A DNA stretch of 40,305 nucleotides from a virus. The stretch lies in IMG/VR virus record IMGVR_UViG_3300045988_079557, one strand, 5' to 3'. Below the pieces are notes generated by a model. That model searched no databases and was not told the origin of the DNA. It saw only the letters and a program-made list of their open reading frames with translations. The translations under genes and the position numbers were made by a program. Positions 331 through 40,029 of this stretch are shown here, in pieces; within the stretch, counting starts at the first letter, position 1, and each line of letters begins with the position of its first letter.

Positions 331-3300
331 TTATTTCTTAGTAGTAACACTCTTTGAAGCCGACCAAGCACCATAATACTTAGTACCCTTTACAGTTGTG
401 TACGAACGAACACGAACGTAATATTTCTTTTTGCCTGAAAGCTTTGAAACAGTGGTCTTGTCAGTCTTGTTGTTTGTTATGGTAACTTTCTTTGCACTTG
501 TGAACTTTGAGTTGGTGGCATACTGAATCTCGTATCCAGTAGCAGAGCCTTTCTGCGCCCAGTCCACAAAGAATGCCTTGCTCTTTGCCGTGAGCTTCTG
601 TATCTCCTGCTTGGCAGGATTTATCTTGAACGTCTTTGTGATAGTGCCTGCGTAAGAGCCTTTTCCTGTGACTTTTACAGTGGCAGTACCTATATTCTTG
701 TTGCTTGAGTAGGAAACTGTGTAGTCAGTACCATTTTTCAGCGTTTTACCATTGTATTTAACAGTAATGCTCTGCGTGATATTCTTGCCCGTGTATGACT
801 TGTTTGAAATGCCAGAAATGGTAGCTTTCTTGAAGTTATTTTTGATACTGTAGGTCTTAGAAACTGAGCCTGTGTAATTGCCCTTGCCTGTGATAGTGAC
901 CTTTGCTGTGCCTACCTTGGTGTTGTTTGAATAGGAAACTGTGTAATCTGTACCATTCTTCAAAGTTTTGCCGTTTAGCTTGACCGTTACACCAGGCTTC
1001 TTTGCCTTGCCATCATAAGCGTAGGTCGAAGTGGAAAGTGTCACGCTTGCCTTTGAAATGCTAATTCTTGAAAGTGCAGGAATTTCAGCCGTTTCAAGAA
1101 CTTTCTTGCAGACTGTACATTCCTTGTGTTTTGAGCCTTTAACTCCGATAGAAGCCGCCTTGTCAACTATCCAACCGCTTGACTTGTGACCTGTGGCATT
1201 TATCACTGTCTGAACCTTGATAACAGTATTGCAAACTGAGCAATGTGAGCCGTCTGTTTTGCCTGCGGTGGTGCAAGTAGCAGGGTAGCCCTTGTCGGTA
1301 ACTGCAGTGTGACCCTTTGCAGGAAGCTTTTCTGTAACTGTCACATTGCACTTTGTGCAAGTCTTTATTTTTGTACCCTCTGATGTGCAGGTAGGCTGTT
1401 TTGTTACAACAGAATTTCCGTAGCTGTGACCTGTTGCCTTAGTTGTGCTATCCTTGTATGAAGTACCGCAAACAGAACACTTGTGGAGTGTATAGCCGTC
1501 AGTAGTGCAAGTAGGTGCAACAACTGTGTTAGCATATTTGTGTGAAGTCTTCGGTATAGTTTCTGTAACTGTCGCATTGCACTTTGTGCAAGTCTTTATA
1601 GCAGTACCCTCTGATGTGCAGGTCGGTTGTTTTGTTACAACAGAATTTCCATAGCTGTGACCTGTTGCTTTTGTTGTGCTATCCTTGTATGAAGTACCGC
1701 AAACAGAACACTTGTGGAGAGTGTAGCCGTTAGTAGTGCAAGTAGGTGCAACAACTGTGGTTGTGTAGCTGTGGGAAAGCTTTGCAATTGTTTCTGTTAC
1801 TGTTGCTCCGCACTGCGTACAAGTTTTTGTTTTTGTACCTTCCGCTGTGCAGGTCGGCTGTTTTGTGATAACAGCACTGCCATATGTGTGGCTCGTGCAT
1901 CCGCAGGTGAATTTGTATGTCTTTGCTACAGACGGATTGTATGTAGGATAAATTTTTACAGTGAGTGAACCGCCGTTTTTGAATGTGATACGTCTGATAT
2001 CATTAGCATAGTTTTCAAGCTTATTTACACTTACCATACTGCGATCAGAAAATTCAACTGTGTAGTCTGTATCGTCATAAAGCCAGAAATCAATGCTGTC
2101 GCCCACACTGAACTGAGTTTTGCTCAATACGCTTGAAAAGGACGTATTTGAAAGGTCTGTGCGCCAATAAACAGTGGTAGAGGTCGGAACTGTGAACTTA
2201 TTCACATAACCGCAAGACTTGCAGGTCTGTGTTACAGTGCCGTCAGTTTTTGATGCGTACTTTGTTTCGTAGTCATGACCTGTTTTGACGTCAACCGTTT
2301 TGATATCGTCAAGATTTGAAAGGTTCAGGGAGTTGAAGGTCACGTTATTTTTATCGTAAACATACCAAACTGCTCTGCCGTTTTTGATAACAGGCTGGCA
2401 ATCTGAAAGGCTTCCCTCAAAGGTGTGTATACTGCCGTTTACTGTGCCGTCAGCGTTTAGCTTCACACAGCTTACCTTTGTATCTCTGCTCCACAATAGC
2501 AAAAAGCTGTTATTATTTATCTTCACAAGCTGTGGAGCAGAAGCTGAAGCTGTACCCTCTGCATAAGAAGTTATCTTATTGAGCTTGTTTGTGGAAAGGT
2601 CCTTTGAAACAGCGGAAACGTAGACGTTTCGTGTTTCTGACGTATTGATATAATCAAGGTCAACTGTACTCTGTGCCACGATATAGCTTGATGATGACAC
2701 ATCAAAGCCGCCTATAGCCGCACCTGTATAGTTATAGTGACCGGCGGTATATTCAGGGTATGTTACAACGTCGATATTGCTGACCTGTTCAAAATAGCTT
2801 GGGAAGAATTTGCCTGTGGTAAAATCAGAATTATACTTCACCAGAACGGCAGAACGTGGATGAGCGTCACCATGGTCGAGGGCGACTATATGGTTGCCAT
2901 CGGTTTTTATAAACTGATTGAAGGAGTGGCTAACATAGCCATAATCAACGTTCATGATGCCGGTATACGAATCAGTGATAGTCATTGAAGGCATATCCAC
3001 TTCAATGGTAACATTAGCCTGATGATTATTGCCGTCGCTTGATTTATACATTTCATGGCAGGTTCTCACAAGCAGGTGGTCACCGCTATGGGTCATTCTT
3101 GCCGAGCCTGCATCGAATGGAACTGTAGTGTTAGCTCCATACAGACCGCAGGACTTTATTTTGTTCCAATTCTTATCATACTTCGTGATACGGAAAACCT
3201 CGAGGGAGTCGTTTTGTTTCGGATTTTCCTGACCGCTAAGGACATAATAATTATTGCCGGAGTCATAGAAAGCACCAAAGATCGGCAGTTCATTGTCGAT

Positions 3301-3585
3301 AAGTTTAGTGCTGAGCGGTTCAAAATCAGAGCTGTAATATTCCACAAGGAGCTTGCCCTTGATAGCGCCTGACTGGACACGCATATAATTGCCGTTGTCG
3401 CACACTGTCAAGTAAGATTTCACTGTGTCAGACCATTGCACATAGTCCTGATCATTCACATTAGAGCCTGAATACGCAACACATTGCGCCACGGCAAAGG
3501 CACTGAACGATCCAGCAGACACAGCAGTAGAAACAGCCATTGCGCCAGACAGGACAATGCTCAACATTCTTTTCTTCATATTCAT
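331..3585 (-). CDS. Secreted multi-domain cell-surface protein (host gene) with Cys-rich repeats, Ig-like repeats and an FN3-like C-terminus
   Basis: ORF track 331..3606. I moved the start to the ATG at 3585, which has GAGGTG about 8 nt upstream. The product has a signal peptide (MKKRMLSIVLSGAMAVSTAVSAGSFSAFA). It has three ~77-aa repeats of the form TCT..G....C..CG, and two 'GTDYTVSY.N..GTA.V.VTGKGNYTG' repeats. The FN3-like tail reads 'GYEIQYATNSKF...YYVRVRSY'. Confidence 0.8.
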   Translation of the reverse strand: MNMKKRMLSIVLSGAMAVSTAVSAGSFSAFAVAQCVAYSGSNVNDQDYVQWSDTVKSYLTVCDNGNYMRVQSGAIKGKLLVEYYSSDFEPLSTKLIDNELPIFGAFYDSGNNYYVLSGQENPKQNDSLEVFRITKYDKNWNKIKSCGLYGANTTVPFDAGSARMTHSGDHLLVRTCHEMYKSSDGNNHQANVTIEVDMPSMTITDSYTGIMNVDYGYVSHSFNQFIKTDGNHIVALDHGDAHPRSAVLVKYNSDFTTGKFFPSYFEQVSNIDVVTYPEYTAGHYNYTGAAIGGFDVSSSSYIVAQSTVDLDYINTSETRNVYVSAVSKDLSTNKLNKITSYAEGTASASAPQLVKINNNSFLLLWSRDTKVSCVKLNADGTVNGSIHTFEGSLSDCQPVIKNGRAVWYVYDKNNVTFNSLNLSNLDDIKTVDVKTGHDYETKYASKTDGTVTQTCKSCGYVNKFTVPTSTTVYWRTDLSNTSFSSVLSKTQFSVGDSIDFWLYDDTDYTVEFSDRSMVSVNKLENYANDIRRITFKNGGSLTVKIYPTYNPSVAKTYKFTCGCTSHTYGSAVITKQPTCTAEGTKTKTCTQCGATVTETIAKLSHSYTTTVVAPTCTTNGYTLHKCSVCGTSYKDSTTKATGHSYGNSVVTKQPTCTSEGTAIKTCTKCNATVTETIPKTSHKYANTVVAPTCTTDGYTLHKCSVCGTSYKDSTTKATGHSYGNSVVTKQPTCTSEGTKIKTCTKCNVTVTEKLPAKGHTAVTDKGYPATCTTAGKTDGSHCSVCNTVIKVQTVINATGHKSSGWIVDKAASIGVKGSKHKECTVCKKVLETAEIPALSRISISKASVTLSTSTYAYDGKAKKPGVTVKLNGKTLKNGTDYTVSYSNNTKVGTAKVTITGKGNYTGSVSKTYSIKNNFKKATISGISNKSYTGKNITQSITVKYNGKTLKNGTDYTVSYSSNKNIGTATVKVTGKGSYAGTITKTFKINPAKQEIQKLTAKSKAFFVDWAQKGSATGYEIQYATNSKFTSAKKVTITNNKTDKTTVSKLSGKKKYYVRVRSYTTVKGTKYYGAWSASKSVTTKK
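1331..1870. repeat. 231-bp (77-codon) tandem repeat, 2 full copies plus a diverged third copy, inside the surface-protein CDS
   Basis: 'tctgtaactgtc(a/g)cattgcactttgtgcaagtcttta' recurs at 1331 and 1562. A diverged copy starts near 1793. The long near-identical stretches are visible by eye. Confidence 0.8.
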
Positions 3586-3766
3586 CAATTTCATCACCTC
3601 ATACAAAAACTTTTAAACGAGAACACCTTTATATATATAATATCACAACGCAAGGCATATGTCAATGAAAATAAGTTACAATGAGAATGATTTCAATAAA
3701 TTCGTCAAACACCAAAGGTCAACGCAGTAAAAAAGAGCAAAGAGGATACAAAACAAAAAAAACGCC

Positions 3767-3795
3767 TTGACAAGGTTTGATGGGTGTGATATAAT
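3767..3795 (+). promoter_or_regulatory. Consensus sigma-A type promoter of tRNA-Pro
   Basis: TTGACA (3767-3772), a 17-nt spacer, then TATAAT (3790-3795), about 15 nt upstream of the tRNA 5' end. Confidence 0.8.
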
Positions 3796-3810
3796 ATTAC
3801 AGTGGTATTT

Positions 3811-3887
3811 CGAGGTGTGGCTCAGTTTGGTAGAGCGCTGCGTTCGGGACGCAGAGGCCGTGGGTTCAAGTCCCGTCACCTCGACCA
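3811..3887 (+). tRNA. tRNA-Pro (anticodon CGG), CCA encoded
   Basis: Manual cloverleaf. Acceptor cgaggtg/cacctcg, D arm gctc-agtttggta-gagc. Anticodon stem ctgcg/cgcag with loop ttCGGga. T arm gtggg-ttcaagt-cccgt, then A-CCA. Confidence 0.85.
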
Positions 3888-3888
3888 G
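3857..3888 (+). repeat. attL core: 32-bp direct repeat covering the 3' end of tRNA-Pro
   Basis: gccgtgggttcaagtcccgtcacctcgaccag is identical at 3857-3888 and 39998-40029. Confidence 0.9.
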
Positions 3889-3892
3889 CACA

Positions 3893-3939
3893 AAACCGCT
3901 TGTTTACGTCAAATGGCGTAGATAGGCGGTTTTCTTTAT
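3893..3939 (+). terminator. Terminator-like hairpin after the reconstituted tRNA (phage-derived side)
   Basis: The outer stem is aaaccgc/gcggttt and the inner pairing is tacg/cgta. It is followed by tctttat. Confidence 0.5.
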
Positions 3940-3994
3940 GCTCTAAAATGTTAAAATATGCGTAAAAATGATAAAATATCAGCTAAAATAATAA

Positions 3995-4016
3995 ATATAT
4001 GACACGAAATATGACA
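3995..4016 (+). repeat. 22-bp block with two tandem ATATGACA motifs; candidate integrase arm-type site (partner 39932-39953)
   Basis: atatatgacacgaaatatgaca is identical at 3995-4016 and 39932-39953. Both copies are in the same orientation and flank the att core in the reconstructed attP. Confidence 0.55.
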
Positions 4017-4099
4017 CGGAATTTTGCACACACTGAAATTTTGCTCTGAAAATATGCACAAAAAGCAAGCCTATATTTGTGCAATCCTACAAAGTTCAA

Positions 4100-4157
4100 T
4101 GTTATCTATATTTTTGTTATCTAACTACTTGACATTTGCTAGATAACATGGTATACT
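4100..4157 (+). promoter_or_regulatory. Promoter of the cargo operon with three TGTTATCTA operator-like sites
   Basis: TTGACA (4129-4134), 17 nt, TATACT (4152-4157), preceded by TGg as an extended -10. TGTTATCTA occurs at 4100-4108 and 4115-4123. Its inverted copy TAGATAACA is at 4140-4148, so the pair brackets the -35 box. Confidence 0.7.
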
Positions 4158-4217
4158 ATAATCACAGGCAAGAGATGAGACCTGAAATCAAAAATTAATT
4201 TTCGGAGGTACAAAATC

Positions 4218-4475
4218 ATGAAAATCACAGGCGTTAAGAAAGCAGTAGGAACTTACAAGAGAGCAAACAGCGGTGGATATTATCGTTCATCATATGGTGC
4301 TTTGATGGTTGATATGTCAAAAGGTTATGTATGGTGCGACGAATTTTCAGACAGATTTTCGTACATCGCCTATGACGATGAAAACATCGCACGCATAAAT
4401 CTTGAGAGTGAGCCAGCAACCATGCAGAACGTAAAGGCAATTGCCGAAAGAATGTGCGCTGAACATATCGCATAA
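4218..4475 (+). CDS. Hypothetical 85-aa protein (cargo gene A)
   Basis: ORF track. RBS cggaggt lies 8 nt before the ATG. I recognise no motif. Confidence 0.6.
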   Translation: MKITGVKKAVGTYKRANSGGYYRSSYGALMVDMSKGYVWCDEFSDRFSYIAYDDENIARINLESEPATMQNVKAIAERMCAEHIA

Positions 4476-4574
4476 AAACAGCCCTGACGAGTATCTGAAA
4501 ATTGATACGAAACGCCCCACAAAAAAAGGGGCGTCGGCTGGAAAGCAAAATAAAATTTGAAAGGAACTGATAAC

Positions 4575-5282
4575 ATGAGTAATTTGAAAAACATGAGAGA
4601 AAAAAGAGGCATGACACAAGATGAGCTGGCAAAGAGAATAGGTTCTGTCAGAAGCTATATTTGCCGCCTGGAGAGCGGTGCGCAGGATATAAACTTTATC
4701 CAGGCAAGCACGCTGGGACGTCTATGCACGGCACTGGACTGCAAGCCCGAAGATTTGCTGGAAGCTGATAGTTTCGAGTTTGAGGAGATCAACGGCGAAA
4801 AGCGACTGATAGTTGACGGGCTGTATGCCCCTGAAGGAAATTATTTGCTTGTAAAAATCAAAAACAGAACGTATCAGCTGAGCATGATTGATTTTTCAAA
4901 TGTTGATGATATATCCAAACATTTGATACCACGTGGCAACGCAAATATCCCACGAAGCGCAGCAGAGTTCGACAAGAAGGCATACTGGATATATAAAATG
5001 GCGCCACGTGACGGCGTGGAGGTCAAAGTCCTAGACCCTATCAGCCCCGAAGATTGGAAGGCGCTGATTGAAAAACTAGAGCTGACCGATGATGATATCT
5101 CGGACGAATTTGAAGTTGTCAAGGGTAAGAACTATGGTGAAAAGTGTGAGAAACACTACGTTTGCAGACAGATAAGACTTACCACCCCGAAAAATTCGGT
5201 TACGATTGAGCGAGAGTTGAAAAAACATGGCATTGAGGCAATGAACGTAAGTGTTGACCGCATAAACATCAGGGTAAAATGA
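4575..5282 (+). CDS. XRE-family HTH domain fused to an unknown ~170-aa C-terminal domain (cargo gene B)
   Basis: ORF track 4557..5282 opens with TTG. I prefer the ATG at 4575, which has aaagga 9 nt upstream. The N-terminus 'LKNMREKRGMTQDELAKRIGSVRSYICRLESGAQDINFIQASTLGRLCTALDCKPEDLL' is a typical XRE HTH. Confidence 0.7.
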   Translation: MSNLKNMREKRGMTQDELAKRIGSVRSYICRLESGAQDINFIQASTLGRLCTALDCKPEDLLEADSFEFEEINGEKRLIVDGLYAPEGNYLLVKIKNRTYQLSMIDFSNVDDISKHLIPRGNANIPRSAAEFDKKAYWIYKMAPRDGVEVKVLDPISPEDWKALIEKLELTDDDISDEFEVVKGKNYGEKCEKHYVCRQIRLTTPKNSVTIERELKKHGIEAMNVSVDRINIRVK

Positions 5283-5283
5283 C

Positions 5284-6258
5284 ATGGCAAAACAAAAATA
5301 CGAATTGCTGCCAGACAAAGTAGTTGCAGCCAATGCAGAAACCATAAAAGCCATAGGGCATATCGCAACCGATACCGATATAGTGGATTATGTCAGCGGT
5401 CAGCTGATGCGTGACTATATCAAATTCGGTAAGAAAACCCTAGACGAAGCCGCCAAGTTGACCGAACAAACGATAATGTCAGATGATTTTTTAGACAAGC
5501 TGGGTGCTATAAAAAATATGACAAACTGGTACTATAGTGGACGGCAAGTGTATCTATTTGATGATGATTTTGCAGATTTGCTCAGCGGTCAAGGCACAGC
5601 AGATTTGAAAATCAGTGCAGACGTTTTCAAACAATTGCCATGCAACTGTTTTTACGTTCAGCGAAAATACAAAAATAGTGTGGGGTTCTTTTTCGACTTG
5701 CAGGGCGACCGAATGACAATGACAGAATATTTTTTTGACGATTCCAAAAAAGACTACTATTCGGAATCAATCGCTATAGAATTGCAGTATGATATATCAG
5801 TTGAAGACCTGATATATAAAATTCTAGGCAGCTATGCCAAAAAAGACAAGGCAGGCACTAAGGCAATGATATGCGACATAGCCGAAAAATTGCAGTTCAT
5901 CGTCTATTTATCGGCTGTAAACGCAGAAATCGCACCAGTCACGAAACGCCAGGTGCAGAAGAAAACCGCCACACAACGTCCACAGAAGCCGTCTGCACAG
6001 CCACAGAAATCAGCCATAGCCAATGTAGGATACCGCATTGGCATTGCCGTGCGCAAGCATAGGCAGGCTGAAAGCAGTGCTAGTTATCAGCATAGCCCAC
6101 AAGGTCACAGCGCACCGAAAGCACCGCACATCAGGCGTGCGCACTTTCACGGCTACCATACCAACAACGGCTATCAGGTGAAGTGGCTGAATACAATCTT
6201 CGTCAACGCTGAGCGTGATGATAATGATATCAGCACGATTCACAAGGTGCTGCAATAA
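5284..6258 (+). CDS. Hypothetical 324-aa protein (cargo gene C) with an acidic N-terminal region, a Q/P/K-rich linker and a basic His-rich C-terminus
   Basis: ORF track. The ATG lies 1 nt after the stop of gene B (TGAcATG). The C-terminal motif is 'PHIRRAHFHGYHTNNGYQVKWLNTIFVN'. I see no enzymatic motif. Confidence 0.65.
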   Translation: MAKQKYELLPDKVVAANAETIKAIGHIATDTDIVDYVSGQLMRDYIKFGKKTLDEAAKLTEQTIMSDDFLDKLGAIKNMTNWYYSGRQVYLFDDDFADLLSGQGTADLKISADVFKQLPCNCFYVQRKYKNSVGFFFDLQGDRMTMTEYFFDDSKKDYYSESIAIELQYDISVEDLIYKILGSYAKKDKAGTKAMICDIAEKLQFIVYLSAVNAEIAPVTKRQVQKKTATQRPQKPSAQPQKSAIANVGYRIGIAVRKHRQAESSASYQHSPQGHSAPKAPHIRRAHFHGYHTNNGYQVKWLNTIFVNAERDDNDISTIHKVLQ

Positions 6259-6278
6259 CTGTGTACCGCAATAAAAAA

Positions 6279-6307
6279 AGCCGCCAGGGCAAAGCGCTCT
6301 GACGGCT
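6279..6307 (-). terminator. Terminator between the convergent cargo operon and the late (lysis) operon
   Basis: The stem is agccgccag/ctgacggct with one mismatch. An A7 run lies on the plus-strand 5' side, giving a T7 run after the hairpin on the minus strand. Confidence 0.7.
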
Positions 6308-6341
6308 AAATTTATGCGAATTTTATGCGAATTTTATTCGA

Positions 6342-6995
6342 CTATTTTTTGATTTTTTCACGCAGTTTCTTGATGAATTTCTTGCCTGCTATGCCGTTCG
6401 GCTTATAGCCCCATGTTTTCAGCCTTGCATTGATAGCACTGACAGTGCCCTTGCCGATGATTGCATTATCGTCCAGCTTCGCACCGTCAAGGATCAGCAA
6501 CTGTTTCAGGGCATATGACCCGTCTGTGCTCGCACCTTTCTTATAACCCTTTGTCTCCAGTGTAGGCGGATTGATAACGCTCTGATTTTTCGGACGCAGA
6601 ACGCCAAGAACATGGTTATAGTTGTGATAGACACGTGTGCATGGGTCATTCCTGCCCAGCCAGTTCTGATCGTAGCTGTAGAAATATTTTGTGTTGCCCT
6701 CGCCTGTGGCTATGGCAACGTGACCAATACCGCCGTTCAGACTACCGCCCCATACCACGATATCACCCTTTTTCGGAACGAATGACGGCGTGTTTTTAAT
6801 TCTGGTAAAATAGCCCTTGACCGCCTGCTTGTCGAAATCTTCGTAAATCTGTTTCGCATACATACCTGTGAACATACCGCAGCCGACAACATCTCTGTTG
6901 TACTGATTAGCCAGGTCAAAACACTGTACACCGTACAACTTATCGAAATTAATGCCCTTGCCTTTATATTTCTTCACGAACTCATCAAATGTCAT
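6342..6995 (-). CDS. Endolysin: CHAP-domain peptidoglycan hydrolase with a C-terminal PG-binding-like domain
   Basis: CHAP signature 'GVQCFDLANQY ... GDIVVWGG...GHVAIA'. It is the last gene of the late operon, next to the holin. Confidence 0.8.
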   Translation of the reverse strand: MTFDEFVKKYKGKGINFDKLYGVQCFDLANQYNRDVVGCGMFTGMYAKQIYEDFDKQAVKGYFTRIKNTPSFVPKKGDIVVWGGSLNGGIGHVAIATGEGNTKYFYSYDQNWLGRNDPCTRVYHNYNHVLGVLRPKNQSVINPPTLETKGYKKGASTDGSYALKQLLILDGAKLDDNAIIGKGTVSAINARLKTWGYKPNGIAGKKFIKKLREKIKK

Positions 6996-6998
6996 AGT

Positions 6999-7376
6999 TT
7001 AGTCCTCCTTATCTTTGAAAACACCAAATTTTGCCACGATTTTGTTTATCCAACTGGCTTGCGGATTGATTTCACCATAGTTTTCCAGTATGGAAACTAT
7101 TTCCATAGCAAAAATATACCCGAAAACAGCTAGTGCGGTTATAGTGCCTGCAATGCCTGCCAGTTCGCTATGTCCATAGTAGTGACCTAGCTGTTCAAAA
7201 CCTATCTCCGAACCGATAGCCACACCCATGACGACTATTTCGGCTAACTTGTTCAGACCGCCCTTGCGCATTTTCGATGACTGAACGTCGCCTTTGCAAT
7301 AGGCTTTTATCCAGCCTGTGGCAAAATCAGCCAACGCAAGACCTATCACGATCATCAGCATGATTATGTATTTCAC
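6999..7376 (-). CDS. Holin (TcdE/phage_holin_4-like)
   Basis: Three hydrophobic segments, 'DFATGWIKA', 'SSKMRKGGLNKL' and the 'EIVSILEN' motif. It uses a GTG start that overlaps the upstream stop (GTGA). Confidence 0.8.
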   Translation of the reverse strand: MKYIIMLMIVIGLALADFATGWIKAYCKGDVQSSKMRKGGLNKLAEIVVMGVAIGSEIGFEQLGHYYGHSELAGIAGTITALAVFGYIFAMEIVSILENYGEINPQASWINKIVAKFGVFKDKED

Positions 7377-30578: not shown

Positions 30579-31064
30579 TCAAAAATCTGTCCTGCCTGGA
30601 TTGTCCGTCCGCCTGCCGTTTGTGTGCGCTGCGGGAGCAGCATATATTTCTTTATCTTTGTTATACTTTGTTGCTTTCTTTTCATTGGTGCCCTTAGCCT
30701 GCCCCTTGCCTGCCCTTAGCCTGCCCTTAGCCTGCCCGACACTCTGCCGCTTGTCTTGATACTTGTCATAGCAAACCACGGTATAAACGCTATATCGTGG
30801 ATATTTTGAGACTGCCACTTCCCCTGTCTCAATTAGATGTTTTATTGCTGTCCTTACGCTTTTTACTGACAAACCCGTGTTTTTGGCAATGCTTGGATAA
30901 CTTGTAGCTATCTGTCCACGCTGAATTGTGATGTTTTCAAAATCATGCGGTTCATAATTTGCCTGCAAAATCAGATATAAAAACACTACCAATGTGTTTG
31001 GTTCACGAAACCAACGCCATGTGCATATTTTTCGTTCTAGTGTTATAAAACCATTTTCCAGCAT
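30579..31064 (-). CDS. Putative replisome organizer / winged-helix replication initiator-like protein
   Basis: 161 aa. 'IATSYPSIAKNTGLSVKSVRTAIKHLIETGEV' looks like a wHTH. It lies directly upstream of the primase-helicase and contains tandem iterons. Confidence 0.5.
   Translation of the reverse strand: MLENGFITLERKICTWRWFREPNTLVVFLYLILQANYEPHDFENITIQRGQIATSYPSIAKNTGLSVKSVRTAIKHLIETGEVAVSKYPRYSVYTVVCYDKYQDKRQSVGQAKGRLRAGKGQAKGTNEKKATKYNKDKEIYAAPAAHTNGRRTDNPGRTDF
30690..30733. repeat. Four tandem 11-bp iterons (gcccttagcct / gccccttgcct) next to an AT-rich stretch; candidate ori
   Basis: The units are 30690-30700, 30701-30711, 30712-30722 and 30723-30733. The flanking AT-rich sequence is 'catatatttctttatctttgttatactttgttgctttcttttc' (30650-30690). 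Confidence 0.6.
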
Positions 31065-35077: not shown

Positions 35078-35441
35078 GTCTTTTGACCTCCGTTAAACGT
35101 TAAATTTATTTTTTCTTGCTTTTCGACGCCATACTGTGCCGAACTACGCCTTTGCTAGTCACTGCAGTTCCTTTGCTAATCGCTGCTATGCCCTTGCGTC
35201 TCTATGCTTCTCAATGCCTTAGCTAATCAATGCCATTTCTTTGCATGGCACCGCCAATCTGCACCCTGCTATGCCTTTGCCTCTCGTTGCGTGTCAAAAC
35301 TTCGCCTCGCCTTTGCTTGTCGGAACTTAGCTTTGCCTTTGCTTATCTAAACGGTGCTGTGCATACCTAGCCCTAGCTATGCAAAACGTTGCCAGCCTTT
35401 GTATGGCCATGCCGTTGCTTAACAACCCTGAACCGTACTTT
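35078..35441. repeat. Non-coding block 1 of decayed ~21-bp tandem repeats (plus-strand unit ~GCCTTTGCTAATCRCTGCTAT)
   Basis: The motif cores gcctttgct, tcctttgct, gcccttgcg and gccttagct start at about 35148, 35169, 35190 and 35216. More degenerate copies extend to about 35420. No ORF of 60 aa or more exists in any frame. Confidence 0.75.
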
Positions 35442-35648
35442 TTAGAAATCATCTGAAGAAAAACGTTCCAGAAGCTTTTGATGATTGACATTATACAAAT
35501 CAGTCAAGCTAAGCATTGCAGACGTATAACGTTCGCGTAATTCATTCATATCATCAGTAACGCACATACGATTTATAGACCCTTCGAGCATATCAACGGA
35601 ATTCATAGTTTCCTTATGCTTTTGTGCCGTGTAAAATTTATTTTGCAT
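35442..35648 (-). CDS. Hypothetical 68-aa protein between the two repeat blocks
   Basis: ORF track. The RBS aaggggga lies 5 nt upstream. Confidence 0.55.
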   Translation of the reverse strand: MQNKFYTAQKHKETMNSVDMLEGSINRMCVTDDMNELRERYTSAMLSLTDLYNVNHQKLLERFSSDDF

Positions 35649-35901
35649 AATTATCCCCCTTTCTTTTTAGACAGAAAATATTTTTTTTCGCAGTCCTTGC
35701 GATTCATTGCTTATCAAAACTTTGCCGTTGCTTTGCCAGTCTTTGCTAGACCAATCCATGCCTCTGCCTTTCGTTGCTTATCGACGCTAGGCCGTTGCTT
35801 TGCTGTTCAAATCAACACCTTCGCACTTCGCAGTCGTTCACAGGTTCGCTTTGCCATAGCCATAGCCAATGCTATTCATAGCAAATCCGTTGCCTTGCAA
35901 T
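35649..35901. repeat. Non-coding block 2 of degenerate (G)CyTTGC-type repeats
   Basis: gtccttgcg, cattgctt, ctttgccgttgctttgcc, gtctttgct, gcctttcgttgctt, gccgttgctttgct, cgctttgcc and ccgttgccttgc are all present. No minus-strand ORF covers the block. Confidence 0.65.
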
Positions 35902-36957: not shown

Positions 36958-36980
36958 ATATATAGTAGGAGGTGATAAGA

Positions 36981-37310
36981 ATGTTTGACAACCGCCTGAA
37001 AAAGCTGAGAATGGCGAAAAACCTCACACAAGAGGAAGTTGCAAAAGCCTTAGGCTTGCCGAAAACAACTTACTGCAACTACGAACGTGATGAGAGAGAG
37101 CCGTCAGCAATGACACTTTTGAAGATCTCAGCATACTTTGGCGTGTCCCTCGATTATCTTTGCGGAAACGAGGGCGAAAAAAATTCCCCACCACCACAAA
37201 GTGACGAGGAAGCCAAGATTATCGACGCATTAAAGGTTCTTGAAGATAGCGAAATCAAAGACCTTGACAAATATGTCGATTTTCTCCTATTCAAGAGAGG
37301 GCTGCTTTAA
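36981..37310 (+). CDS. CI-like XRE-family repressor
   Basis: 'LKKLRMAKNLTQEEVAKALGLPKTTYCNYERDEREPSAMTLLKISAYFGVSLDYLCG'. The ATG at 36981 lies after AGGAGGTG; the track ORF starts at GTG 36972. Confidence 0.8.
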   Translation: MFDNRLKKLRMAKNLTQEEVAKALGLPKTTYCNYERDEREPSAMTLLKISAYFGVSLDYLCGNEGEKNSPPPQSDEEAKIIDALKVLEDSEIKDLDKYVDFLLFKRGLL

Positions 37311-37667: not shown

Positions 37668-37868
37668 TTATTTGTTGAAACTGAACAAATCATCAAGCCC
37701 ACATTTTAGCGATTTAGCCAATAAGACAACTGTTGAAATGCGTGGGTCAACGTTATAGCGTTCTATCTGGTCTATTTCAGAAAAACTAACGCCTGACAGT
37801 TCAGATAGCTGGCGCAGTGTCAGACGCTGTGTGCGACGTATATCACGCAGATGTGTTTCGTATATCAC
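37668..37868 (-). CDS. Small XRE-family HTH protein (66 aa)
   Basis: 'LRDIRRTQRLTLRQLSELSGVSFSEIDQIERYNVDPRISTVVLLAKSLKCGLDDLF'. The GTG start at 37868 lies 6 nt after GAGGTG. I rejected the track's Pro-rich N-terminal extension. Confidence 0.6.
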   Translation of the reverse strand: MIYETHLRDIRRTQRLTLRQLSELSGVSFSEIDQIERYNVDPRISTVVLLAKSLKCGLDDLFSFNK

Positions 37869-37932
37869 ATATATCACCTCTGTGGCTAGTGTGCCCACAG
37901 GAGCCGTGATTATCAGAAAAGGGGTAGAAAAC

Positions 37933-38793
37933 ATGGGATTACGTTTTAGAAAATCAATTAAACTTGGCGGCGGTGCGAGATTAAACATCGGCAAGAAATC
38001 TGTCGGTATGAGTGTCGGTGGAAAGGGCGCACGATACAGTGTCAACAGCTCAGGGCGGCGCACAAAGTCTGTCGGTATACCAGGCACAGGGCTGTCATAT
38101 GTATCAACATCGGGTGGCAGAAAGTCGTCAAGCCGTAGTTCTCACGGCCGTAAAGCAAGTAGCACGTCAAAGGGCGGTTGCCTACTGGTGATAATCATTT
38201 TCTGTGCTATATCGGTTATAGTCTATGGAATAGCGCACCTATTCGGCTATAGGCGACCGACAAAGGTTGAATGGACTAATGACAACTATTCTATCGCACT
38301 GAATGACTATAATCGTGATTATAGTCACATAATCTATTTGCGAATCACAGGTGAAACCGACGCAGAGGACGTTGATCCGAAAGATATCAAAATTGAAATC
38401 AGCAATCCTGACGTTTGTCAGTTAGAATATGATGATAGCGGTGCATATGTCACCTATGATGTGAAACCCCTGAAAGACGGCTTTGCGGACGTGACCGCCA
38501 CATATGACGGTGTGACATCTGACCCTATAACAATTACAGTGGACATGGGCGAAAAAGTCACCACTACCACCACAACAACTACTACCACCACCGCAGAACC
38601 TGAAACCACCACCGAAGCAATCCCTGTGGCAACCACTGCACAGGATCCAGCCGAAACGATAGTATATATCACGGCTTCGGGCGACAAGTATCACAGCAAA
38701 TCATGCAGATACTATGATGATACCTGCACGCCAATGAACCTACAGGACGCACAAAACGCAGGCTATAAGCCTTGCAAGGTGTGTGGCGGATAA
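37933..38793 (+). CDS. DUF4236-type membrane protein with an extracellular Ig-like domain, a poly-Thr linker and a C-terminal Cys motif
   Basis: The N-terminus 'MGLRFRKSIKLGGGARLNIGKKSVGMSVGGKGARYSVN' looks like DUF4236. The TM segment is 'CLLVIIIFCAISVIVYGIAHLF'. 'TTTTTTTTTT' follows. The C-terminus is 'YHSKSCRYY...GYKPCKVCGG'. Confidence 0.6.
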   Translation: MGLRFRKSIKLGGGARLNIGKKSVGMSVGGKGARYSVNSSGRRTKSVGIPGTGLSYVSTSGGRKSSSRSSHGRKASSTSKGGCLLVIIIFCAISVIVYGIAHLFGYRRPTKVEWTNDNYSIALNDYNRDYSHIIYLRITGETDAEDVDPKDIKIEISNPDVCQLEYDDSGAYVTYDVKPLKDGFADVTATYDGVTSDPITITVDMGEKVTTTTTTTTTTTAEPETTTEAIPVATTAQDPAETIVYITASGDKYHSKSCRYYDDTCTPMNLQDAQNAGYKPCKVCGG

Positions 38794-38938: not shown

Positions 38939-39988
38939 ATGGCAACAGCGAAAAGACTGCCGAGCGGAAGTTATCGTGTGAGAGTGTACGATAAAAACAC
39001 CGGTAAATACAAATCGTTCACGGCCGAAACGAAAAAAGCCACCGAGCTTGCGGCGGCGGAATGGCTGATAAAATGTCAGGACGAAGAAAACCAGCAAATA
39101 ACATTCCAGACCGCAGCTGAAGAATATATCAAAATAAAAACGCCTGTGCTATCACCCACCACGATACACGGCTATCAGACTATCCTGCGCAACAATGTTG
39201 ACAGGCTGAAAGATATTCCGATTGACGAGGTTACGCCGCAGCTAGTGCAGGACTGGGTAAACGGTTTGACCGTTGATAAATCGCCGAAAACTGTTCATAA
39301 CATCTATGGTTTTTTTACAGCTGTTATGTCATACTATGACGTGGATATACGGCTAGGAAAAATTCGTTTGCCGTCCAAAACGAAAAAATTTAAAATTCTG
39401 CCTGATGTTGAAACCGTAGTGGACCTGTTCCGTGGGTCAGATATAGAAATTCCTGTGCTGTTGGCTGTATGGGGCGGTATGCGTATGTCGGAAATACTGG
39501 GTATCCGTCGCAAGGACCTATGTGGTGATGTGTTGACACTGTCGCAGGTGCGTGTCACAGTTGGCAAGGAAATAATTGACAAAGAGCAGGCTAAGACCTA
39601 CAACAGTCGCCGACAGCTACGGCTAGGGCAGCCGATAGTAAATCTAATAGACAGCCTAAACTTGCAACCCGATGATTATGTTGTGGCCTACACCCGAAAA
39701 CAGGTGTACGGCCGTTTCGTCAAAACAATGCGATCGGCAGGCTATCAGATCACATTTCACGATCTACGCCACATCAACGCCAGCGTCATGGCGAAACTAA
39801 ATATCCCTGATGTATACGCTATGGAACGTGGCGGCTGGAGTAACACCAGCACATTGAAATCGGTATATCAGCAAACGTTTGATACAGACCGCCAGCGTAT
39901 TGACCAAACCATTGATGACTATTTTCAGGACATATATGACACGAAATATGACATGAAAAATATAAAACAGCGTAAAAACGTAGTTTGA
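38939..39988 (+). CDS. int: Tyrosine recombinase (phage integrase)
   Basis: 349 aa with 'GGMRMSEILGIRRKDL', 'FHDLRHINAS' and 'GGWSNTSTLKSVYQQ' (R..HxxR..Y). It lies next to attR. Confidence 0.9.
   Translation: MATAKRLPSGSYRVRVYDKNTGKYKSFTAETKKATELAAAEWLIKCQDEENQQITFQTAAEEYIKIKTPVLSPTTIHGYQTILRNNVDRLKDIPIDEVTPQLVQDWVNGLTVDKSPKTVHNIYGFFTAVMSYYDVDIRLGKIRLPSKTKKFKILPDVETVVDLFRGSDIEIPVLLAVWGGMRMSEILGIRRKDLCGDVLTLSQVRVTVGKEIIDKEQAKTYNSRRQLRLGQPIVNLIDSLNLQPDDYVVAYTRKQVYGRFVKTMRSAGYQITFHDLRHINASVMAKLNIPDVYAMERGGWSNTSTLKSVYQQTFDTDRQRIDQTIDDYFQDIYDTKYDMKNIKQRKNVV
39932..39953 (+). repeat. Second copy of the 22-bp ATATGACA-containing block (candidate arm-type site) inside the int 3' end
   Basis: Identical to 3995-4016. 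It lies 45 bp from the att core. Confidence 0.55.
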
Positions 39989-39997
39989 ATAACTTTT

Positions 39998-40029
39998 GCC
40001 GTGGGTTCAAGTCCCGTCACCTCGACCAG
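39998..40029 (+). repeat. attR core: displaced 3' end of tRNA-Pro (32 bp)
   Basis: Identical to 3857-3888. It is followed by the host terminator. Confidence 0.9.

Follow-up and report, generated by a model that had tools for sequence, protein, structure and literature searches.

The viral DNA stretch IMGVR_UViG_3300045988_079557 (IMG/VR; 40,305 nt, analysed as a whole and called the window below) is occupied by a complete prophage of ~36 kb, whose host, from the cluster names, is Ruminococcus bicirculans. Between the left attachment site (attL) and the endolysin gene this prophage carries three plus-strand genes, here named A, B and C (coordinates in Table 1). From its sequence, C is clearly a member of the AcrVA2/FinQ family, and B is a regulator with an N-terminal helix-turn-helix (HTH) of the XRE type. 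Together with operator-like repeats at the promoter and the exchange of parts among related prophages, this makes it probable in our view that A-B-C is an operon of the acr-aca type (anti-CRISPR and anti-CRISPR-associated genes) that serves anti-defence or a conflict between mobile elements. Our confidence is much lower for any particular target. The family of C is already described; the locus adds a member from a gut Ruminococcus in an informative genetic context.

A preliminary description of the locus, made from the sequence alone, had regarded the three genes as ORFans forming an undescribed system. This view had to be given up, as homologues of C, down to 32% identity, make up at least 63 clusters (90% identity), the C-terminal domain of B is found in 73 representative clusters and homologues of A in ten, and C falls into a described family with a Pfam entry and a crystal structure. 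A search of the PHROG profiles with C led to PHROG 6160 (E 7e-19), and a profile of 34 homologues matched the sequence of the AcrVA2 crystal structure PDB 7CI1 with E 9.5e-15. Alignment of the C family with the AcrVA2 homologue of Moraxella phage Mcat4 by hhalign gave a probability of 99% for residues 83-319, and BLASTP of C against the same homologue gave E 2e-12. The Pfam family PF26125 ("AcrVA2-like") is precomputed on 60 of the 63 homologues and on P0001, the representative of C's own 90% cluster, and is thus assigned to C indirectly. The local Pfam scan returned nothing for C, and the Moraxella AcrVA2 homologue likewise stayed blank, which is explained by a local library that does not contain PF26125; where a family was added recently, an empty Pfam scan should be compared with the precomputed annotations. 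Searching with C by tblastn retrieved 396 plasmid records, and several among the matches listed are annotated as finQ of enterobacterial plasmids, with a finQ match that spans residues 82-314 of C at ~24% identity. No PADLOC, NCBIfam or toxin-family match was obtained for C. The preliminary description had named homology to ordinary phage proteins as an outcome that would speak against its reading; confident homology of C was indeed found, but to an anti-CRISPR/fertility-inhibition family and not to proteins of phage structure or core regulation. A metagenome-assembled genome of Syntrophaceae (L011, 5809-7925) carries AcrVA2-like genes as an overlapping tandem pair, which suggests a paralogue expansion with different specificities.

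AcrVA2 silences its target gene in that the nascent protein is recognised and the mRNA is then lost, and this mRNA down-regulation requires H286, R288 and H291, with contributions of W79 and D89, the latter moderate (bioRxiv 10.1101/2022.11.29.518452). The equivalent residues of C, H282, R284 and H287, are invariant in the 34 homologues and align with the PHIRRGHWH stretch of AcrVA2. They sit within the His-rich tail that was already cited in the preliminary description, whose statement that no catalytic signature is present therefore missed the functionally essential H-x-R-x-x-H of the family. In the hhalign alignment D93 of C, the D of the GRQxYxFD core, is placed on the equivalent of D89 of AcrVA2; W82 lies 11 residues upstream of D93, compared to 10 for W79 in AcrVA2, and is left unaligned. 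C further resembles AcrVA2 of the Moraxella bovoculi prophage (PDB 7CI1/7CI2; PF26125) in its length (324 aa versus 322-323 aa), in being prophage-encoded and in the motif series VGYRIG...PHIRRxH(F/W)H...KW...IFVN, in which the H-x-R-x-x-H is kept. It differs in its host, a Gram-positive gut Ruminococcus, and in its partner, which is an HTH-fusion regulator and not AcrVA1 or AcrVA3. FinQ, an AcrVA2 homologue (bioRxiv 10.1101/2022.11.29.518452), belongs to the same family, is likewise accessory cargo of mobile elements (IncI1 and related plasmids) and acts by reducing the mRNA of a rival element's genes. In contrast to C it is encoded on plasmids of Enterobacteriaceae, and the F tra operon, on which it acts, has no relevance in Ruminococcus.

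The second line of evidence comes from gene B and the promoter of the operon. The preliminary description had assigned to the three genes a near-consensus promoter of their own, in agreement with the sigma-70-type elements found (Table 1). In related prophages its -10 box is invariant, the -35 box reads TTGACA or TTGACT, and the promoter is kept where gene A is deleted. Three copies of the 9-mer TGTTATCTA form a candidate operator at this promoter, with copies 2 and 3 as a perfect 9-bp inverted repeat that brackets the -35 box. All copies in the window lie within these 49 bp and none elsewhere; 0.30 copies are expected by chance, and 0 of 100 shuffles reached three. Across the 24 distinct promoter variants that are intact, half-sites 1 and 2 never change and half-site 3 differs by one base in two variants, whereas the bases in between vary. 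L085, a distant B-C locus, possesses its own triplet of TAACA-containing AAAGTAA(T/C)A repeats, one of which is located within the promoter spacer. From the TGTTATCTA repeats at the promoter B looks like an Aca-type autorepressor, presumably by binding to them, and an inverted-repeat operator that overlaps the operon promoter, one of the marks by which acr-aca loci are recognised, is present here. According to the AcaFinder paper, acr-aca genes lie on the same strand with gaps of less than 250 bp, and candidate Acas are HTH proteins of less than 150 aa; A, B and C share one strand, with gaps of 99 nt between A and B and 1 nt between B and C.

The XRE HTH of B, clearly recognised in the preliminary description along with a fused domain of ~170 aa, covers residues 3-64 (HTH_26, E 9e-11; HTH_3 was also matched) and matches PHROG repressor and regulator families. 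An AlphaFold2 model of B reached a mean predicted local distance difference test (pLDDT) value of 81, and in Foldseek searches of PDB and BFVD its HTH part alone was matched, namely by C.BclI, the N-terminal domain of CapH, SinR and P22 c2. The best structural matches are thus controller proteins of restriction-modification systems and CapH-type XRE repressors (C.BclI, C.AhdI and the CapH N-terminal domain; root mean square deviation 1.2-1.8 A over ~60 residues), which autoregulate via repeats at their own promoters. Unlike for these, no restriction-modification partner and no partner from a cyclic oligonucleotide-based antiphage signalling system (CBASS) is found at the locus, and B shares no related C-terminal domain with them. 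This C-terminal domain of ~170 aa had no match in Pfam, PHROG, PDB or BFVD. In its representative clusters it occurs as a fusion with an HTH (~233 aa) or as a stand-alone protein (~163 aa), and one stand-alone gene comes after a separate HTH gene. A check with PADLOC (PADLOC-DB 2.0) for known defence systems, as proposed in the preliminary description, returned generic HTH models on B and nothing on A or C; scans of the three proteins with Pfam and NCBIfam likewise matched nothing but the HTH.

From the placement of the att core, the tRNA, the integrase, the endolysin and the holin, A-B-C occupies the attL/lysis 'moron' position, and the cargo slot, genes and strands of the preliminary description agree with this in every structural point. 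Both the prophage and the slot have their left edge at the attL core. The endolysin and holin genes end a long run of minus-strand genes, and A, B and C are opposed to ~29 kb of such phage genes. The hairpin between both units, named before as a shared terminator and recovered as such, is followed by U7 on the minus strand, whereas on the plus strand it is preceded by A7 and followed by a weak U-tract; as a terminator it is strong for the late operon and weaker for the plus-strand operon. In positions 3600-6400 the tRNA was the sole match of an Rfam scan. C homologues take the same place in unrelated temperate phages: between lysis genes and attP in Lactobacillus phage JCL1032, next to attL and opposite the tail genes in Moraxella phage Mcat4, and beside lysis or late genes, on which they converge, in three metagenomic Firmicutes phage lineages (L004-L008). 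The genes that adjoin C homologues elsewhere were assigned no function by Pfam or PHROG.

The exact C protein is present on 426 contigs, and comparison with sister prophages revealed a mosaic. For sisters with a swapped allele of C, DNA identity is 83-91% up to ~5291, is lost from 5292 to 5880 except for a patch of ~72%, and returns to 85-94% from 5881. At the protein level the swapped allele is 37, 66 and 22% identical for residues 1-75, 76-140 and 141-200, respectively, and 94-100% identical past residue 201; B is ~90% identical irrespective of the N-terminal allele of C downstream. The charge of C, as described before, is uneven, with an acidic part of residues 1-215 (isoelectric point 4.8), a basic linker (11.5) and a basic tail (9.4). 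The peptide contacts of AcrVA2 to residues 620-636 (E98, D129 and D195) are located in the N-terminal two-thirds and the H-x-R-x-x-H near the C-terminus (bioRxiv 10.1101/2022.11.29.518452). As the contacts are N-terminal and the essential motif C-terminal, we propose that C's N-terminal region is the part for target recognition, and that the prophages may exchange such recognition modules on a constant effector module. The sisters L075-L077 have lost A and B together with the promoter and the larger part of C, and codons 269-324 of C are left by the terminator; the A-B-C cassette is dispensable and decays.

Gene A is a small variable gene of the cassette that can be swapped. Searches of Pfam, PHROGs, PADLOC and NCBIfam assigned it to no family. 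Sister prophages have a 144-aa gene unrelated to A in its place or joined to it, or have A deleted exactly, with the promoter joined to the hairpin upstream of B. One homologue was seen by itself in an unrelated phage, in the early region there. It is possible that A acts as a second inhibitor. The GC stem of the structured element between A and B is kept in prophage variants without A, with a different loop, and the element could be involved in mRNA processing or stability, or could represent a cassette junction.

The preliminary description had thought of a prophage defence, superinfection-exclusion or toxin-antitoxin-like module. The general kind, an accessory module for conflict with a regulator and a partner of open function, was correctly seen; the direction towards defence or toxin-antitoxin function is less likely, because the founding member of the family is an anti-defence protein. 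In an exclusion or defence module, C, in the manner of FinQ, would protect the lysogen by silencing a gene that a rival phage or conjugative element brings in, with B as its regulator. FinQ inhibits the transfer of the F plasmid via lower tra mRNA, and C matches finQ directly. The lysogen-type promoter and the moron slot would fit genes of lysogenic conversion, and the swapping of N-terminal alleles of C would fit an arms race with variable invaders. Against this stands that PADLOC recognised nothing besides the HTH and that the sole phage member studied mechanistically is an anti-defence protein. Moreover, the mechanism would be equal to that of an anti-defence operon and the target alone would differ, so that both look the same in sequence. 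We regard such a module as rather unlikely.

The proposed check for co-occurrence of B and C across diverged lineages had a positive outcome. In the immediate prophage family (L020-L072, IMG/VR) both genes are nearly always found together, and B-family members with 38-56% identity to B adjoin AcrVA2-like genes in L014, L081/82 and L085. In L081/82 a small gene is followed by B and C. Other XRE genes abut AcrVA2-like genes in L004, L006 and L074, three of the lineages in which a B-family neighbour is lacking. From such linkage an obligate B-C pair might be considered, toxin-antitoxin-like or as sensor and effector, in which the C-terminal domain of B would bind and neutralise or activate C and translational coupling would set their ratio. 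The tight junction (TGAcATG, with C beginning 1 nt past the stop of B, as noted before; an overlap of 4 nt in L081/82), the recurrence of the B domain beside AcrVA2-like genes in four lineages, and its stand-alone occurrence beside a separate HTH gene, as is often seen for partner domains, would be consistent with this. Yet AcrVA2-like genes occur without a B-family neighbour in at least ten lineages, the B family accompanies unrelated cargo (an ORF6N antirepressor, a lipoprotein or small genes), the gene order is reversed in L014 with C upstream of B, B stays nearly the same whichever C allele follows, and no toxin family is matched. The toxin-antitoxin reading is weak because C is found without B in these lineages and B without C; a type II toxin-antitoxin pair of obligate partners was rejected on these grounds, and we consider the obligate pair in its wider sense quite unlikely. 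A-B-C is rather a recombining set of parts, as known for acr-aca loci, than an obligate three-gene system.

B-family genes with other cargo are often the last gene of their unit and face the lysis cassette. HTH-fusion regulators of the B family also close other cargo cassettes facing lysis genes at L086 (452-2102) and L087 (63-1233), one cassette with a predicted lipoprotein and another with two small genes. The B family may be a general regulator of moron cassettes. A narrow alignment of the B family, used as query for related loci, retrieved two. A 268-aa gene beside the B-like gene of L086 was considered as a hidden AcrVA2-like protein and rejected, as it looks like a lipoprotein.

A role of B in regulating the phage's own lysogeny or late genes, with A and C as dispensable passengers outside any conflict, is very improbable: the HTH of B does match PHROG repressor and regulator families and sister prophages without the whole cassette persist, but a separate repressor-like HTH_3 gene is found in the canonical place beside the integrase, TGTTATCTA in the window is confined to B's own promoter and leaves no evident targets of B elsewhere in the phage, and the family motifs of C are strongly conserved. 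B as the main repressor of the prophage was rejected on account of the separate HTH_3 gene and the confinement of TGTTATCTA.

The locus thus resembles acr-aca operons (Aca1-Aca13-type) in its strong promoter with an overlying inverted repeat, in its small variable genes, Acr homologue and HTH gene, which share one strand and leave short gaps between them, and in the mix-and-match recombination of regulator and cargo. Several points weigh against an acr-aca-like operon for anti-defence or element conflict. B is mid-operon and not last, its 235 aa exceed the AcaFinder limit for candidate Acas, and it carries the conserved domain of ~170 aa, which has no assigned role. The identity of C to AcrVA2 is ~28% over ~115 residues, mainly in the C-terminal third and a short core, with an N-terminal region that is unrelated in sequence. 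In the AlphaFold2 model of C residues 1-215 are confident (~90 pLDDT) and residues 216-324 stay below 50, and Foldseek of this model against PDB gave nothing at E<=0.001, with 7CI1 not among the top matches. Membership of C in the family by structure is therefore putative at most. Likewise, the function of C and its Firmicutes orthologues is read by analogy with AcrVA2. The ~1,800 AcrVA2 orthologues are mostly found on mobile elements of bacteria without Cas12a (Marino et al., bioRxiv 10.1101/2022.11.29.518452), so that 'anti-CRISPR' may be the wrong label here. Finally, most of the AcrVA2-like genes sampled have no B-family neighbour, and the B-family genes without an AcrVA2-like neighbour point in the same direction.

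For an acr-aca-like operon the following course may be proposed. The strong sigma-70 promoter would drive A, B and C, and B would bind the three TGTTATCTA sites around the -35 box via its XRE HTH and repress its own operon as Aca proteins do. C would be the effector. On the model of AcrVA2, a particular polypeptide, probably a single target protein's nascent chain, would be bound by the variable N-terminal and middle region of C, and the conserved C-terminal H-x-R-x-x-H region would then trigger the loss of the target mRNA. Candidate targets in R. bicirculans would be a host immune effector, as expected for anti-defence, or a rival mobile element's gene, corresponding to a FinQ-like exclusion. 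A, the swappable gene of the cassette, may encode a second inhibitor. A more specific version can be put forward tentatively: C as a silencer triggered by nascent polypeptides and aimed beyond Cas12a, for example at Cas13d, at another host immune protein or at a rival phage, with the two N-terminal alleles, which circulate among prophages nearly identical otherwise, as alternative target specificities and the domain of B as a new regulatory or sensor domain dedicated to such cargo. Type VI-D (Cas13d) CRISPR loci have R. bicirculans as their reference species; this is a lead and not evidence.

The locus places a member of a family with the AcrVA2 mechanism in an abundant species of the human gut. 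Recognition of a nascent peptide followed by mRNA loss is an unusual mechanism, and most family members occur outside Cas12a hosts. With two natural alleles of C whose differences are confined to the putative recognition region, a dedicated regulator and its clear candidate operator, and natural deletion variants, the locus offers a practical comparative system for targets of AcrVA2-like proteins outside Moraxella. For annotation, a 'hypothetical protein' of a very common Ruminococcus prophage can be replaced. Aca finders with a 150-aa cutoff miss longer HTH regulators such as B.

Table 1. Features of the A-B-C locus and of the surrounding prophage (positions in the window)
Feature	Position	Strand	Remarks
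tRNA-Pro(cgg)	3811-3887		
att core, 32 nt	3857-3888 (attL) and 39998-40029		exact direct repeat; attL copy is the 3' end of tRNA-Pro
Candidate operator, three 9-mers TGTTATCTA	4100-4148	+	4100-4108 and 4115-4123 direct; 4140-4148 inverted
Sigma-70-type promoter	4129-4157	+	TTGACA-17-TATACT, extended -10 TG; 11 of 12 positions match
Gene A	4218-4475	+	open reading frame, 85 aa
Structured intergenic element between A and B	4479-4540	+	minimum free energy -25.2 kcal/mol, z = -4.66; no U-tract
Gene B	4575-5282	+	235 aa from ATG; an upstream TTG would give 241 aa
Gene C	5284-6258	+	324 aa; AcrVA2/FinQ family (PF26125 "AcrVA2-like", PHROG 6160)
Variable, allele-swapped region of C	5284-5880	+	N-terminal ~200 codons
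H-x-R-x-x-H of C (H282-I-R284-R-A-H287)	6127-6144	+	equivalent to AcrVA2 H286/R288/H291
Convergent terminator hairpin, common to the late (lysis) operon	6279-6307	both	z ~-3.8 (+), ~-4.0 (-)
CHAP endolysin	6342-6995	-	
Holin	6999-7376	-	
Separate HTH_3 repressor candidate	36972-37310		beside the integrase
Tyrosine integrase	38939-39988	+	adjoins right att copy

Some further observations were made in the window. Between the HTH_3 gene and the integrase a 320-aa DUF4236 protein is encoded (37831-38793, plus strand), another accessory gene on the lysogeny side. The repeat ATATATGACACGAAATATGACA is found at 3995-4033 and at 39932-39958, slightly inside both att cores, with the right copy within the 3' end of the integrase gene; the copies look like a set of arm-type integrase binding sites. 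Directly outside the prophage, the host DNA encodes a secreted or surface protein of 1091 aa with Cys-rich repeated modules (331-3606, minus strand), and its gene contains a 231-nt tandem duplication at 1329-1790. In the early and lysogeny-switch region, at 30689-30743 and 35278-35803, an 11-nt tandem repeat (TGCCCTTAGCC, 4-5 copies) and a 39-nt repeat with four copies were detected, which may be origin iterons or operators.

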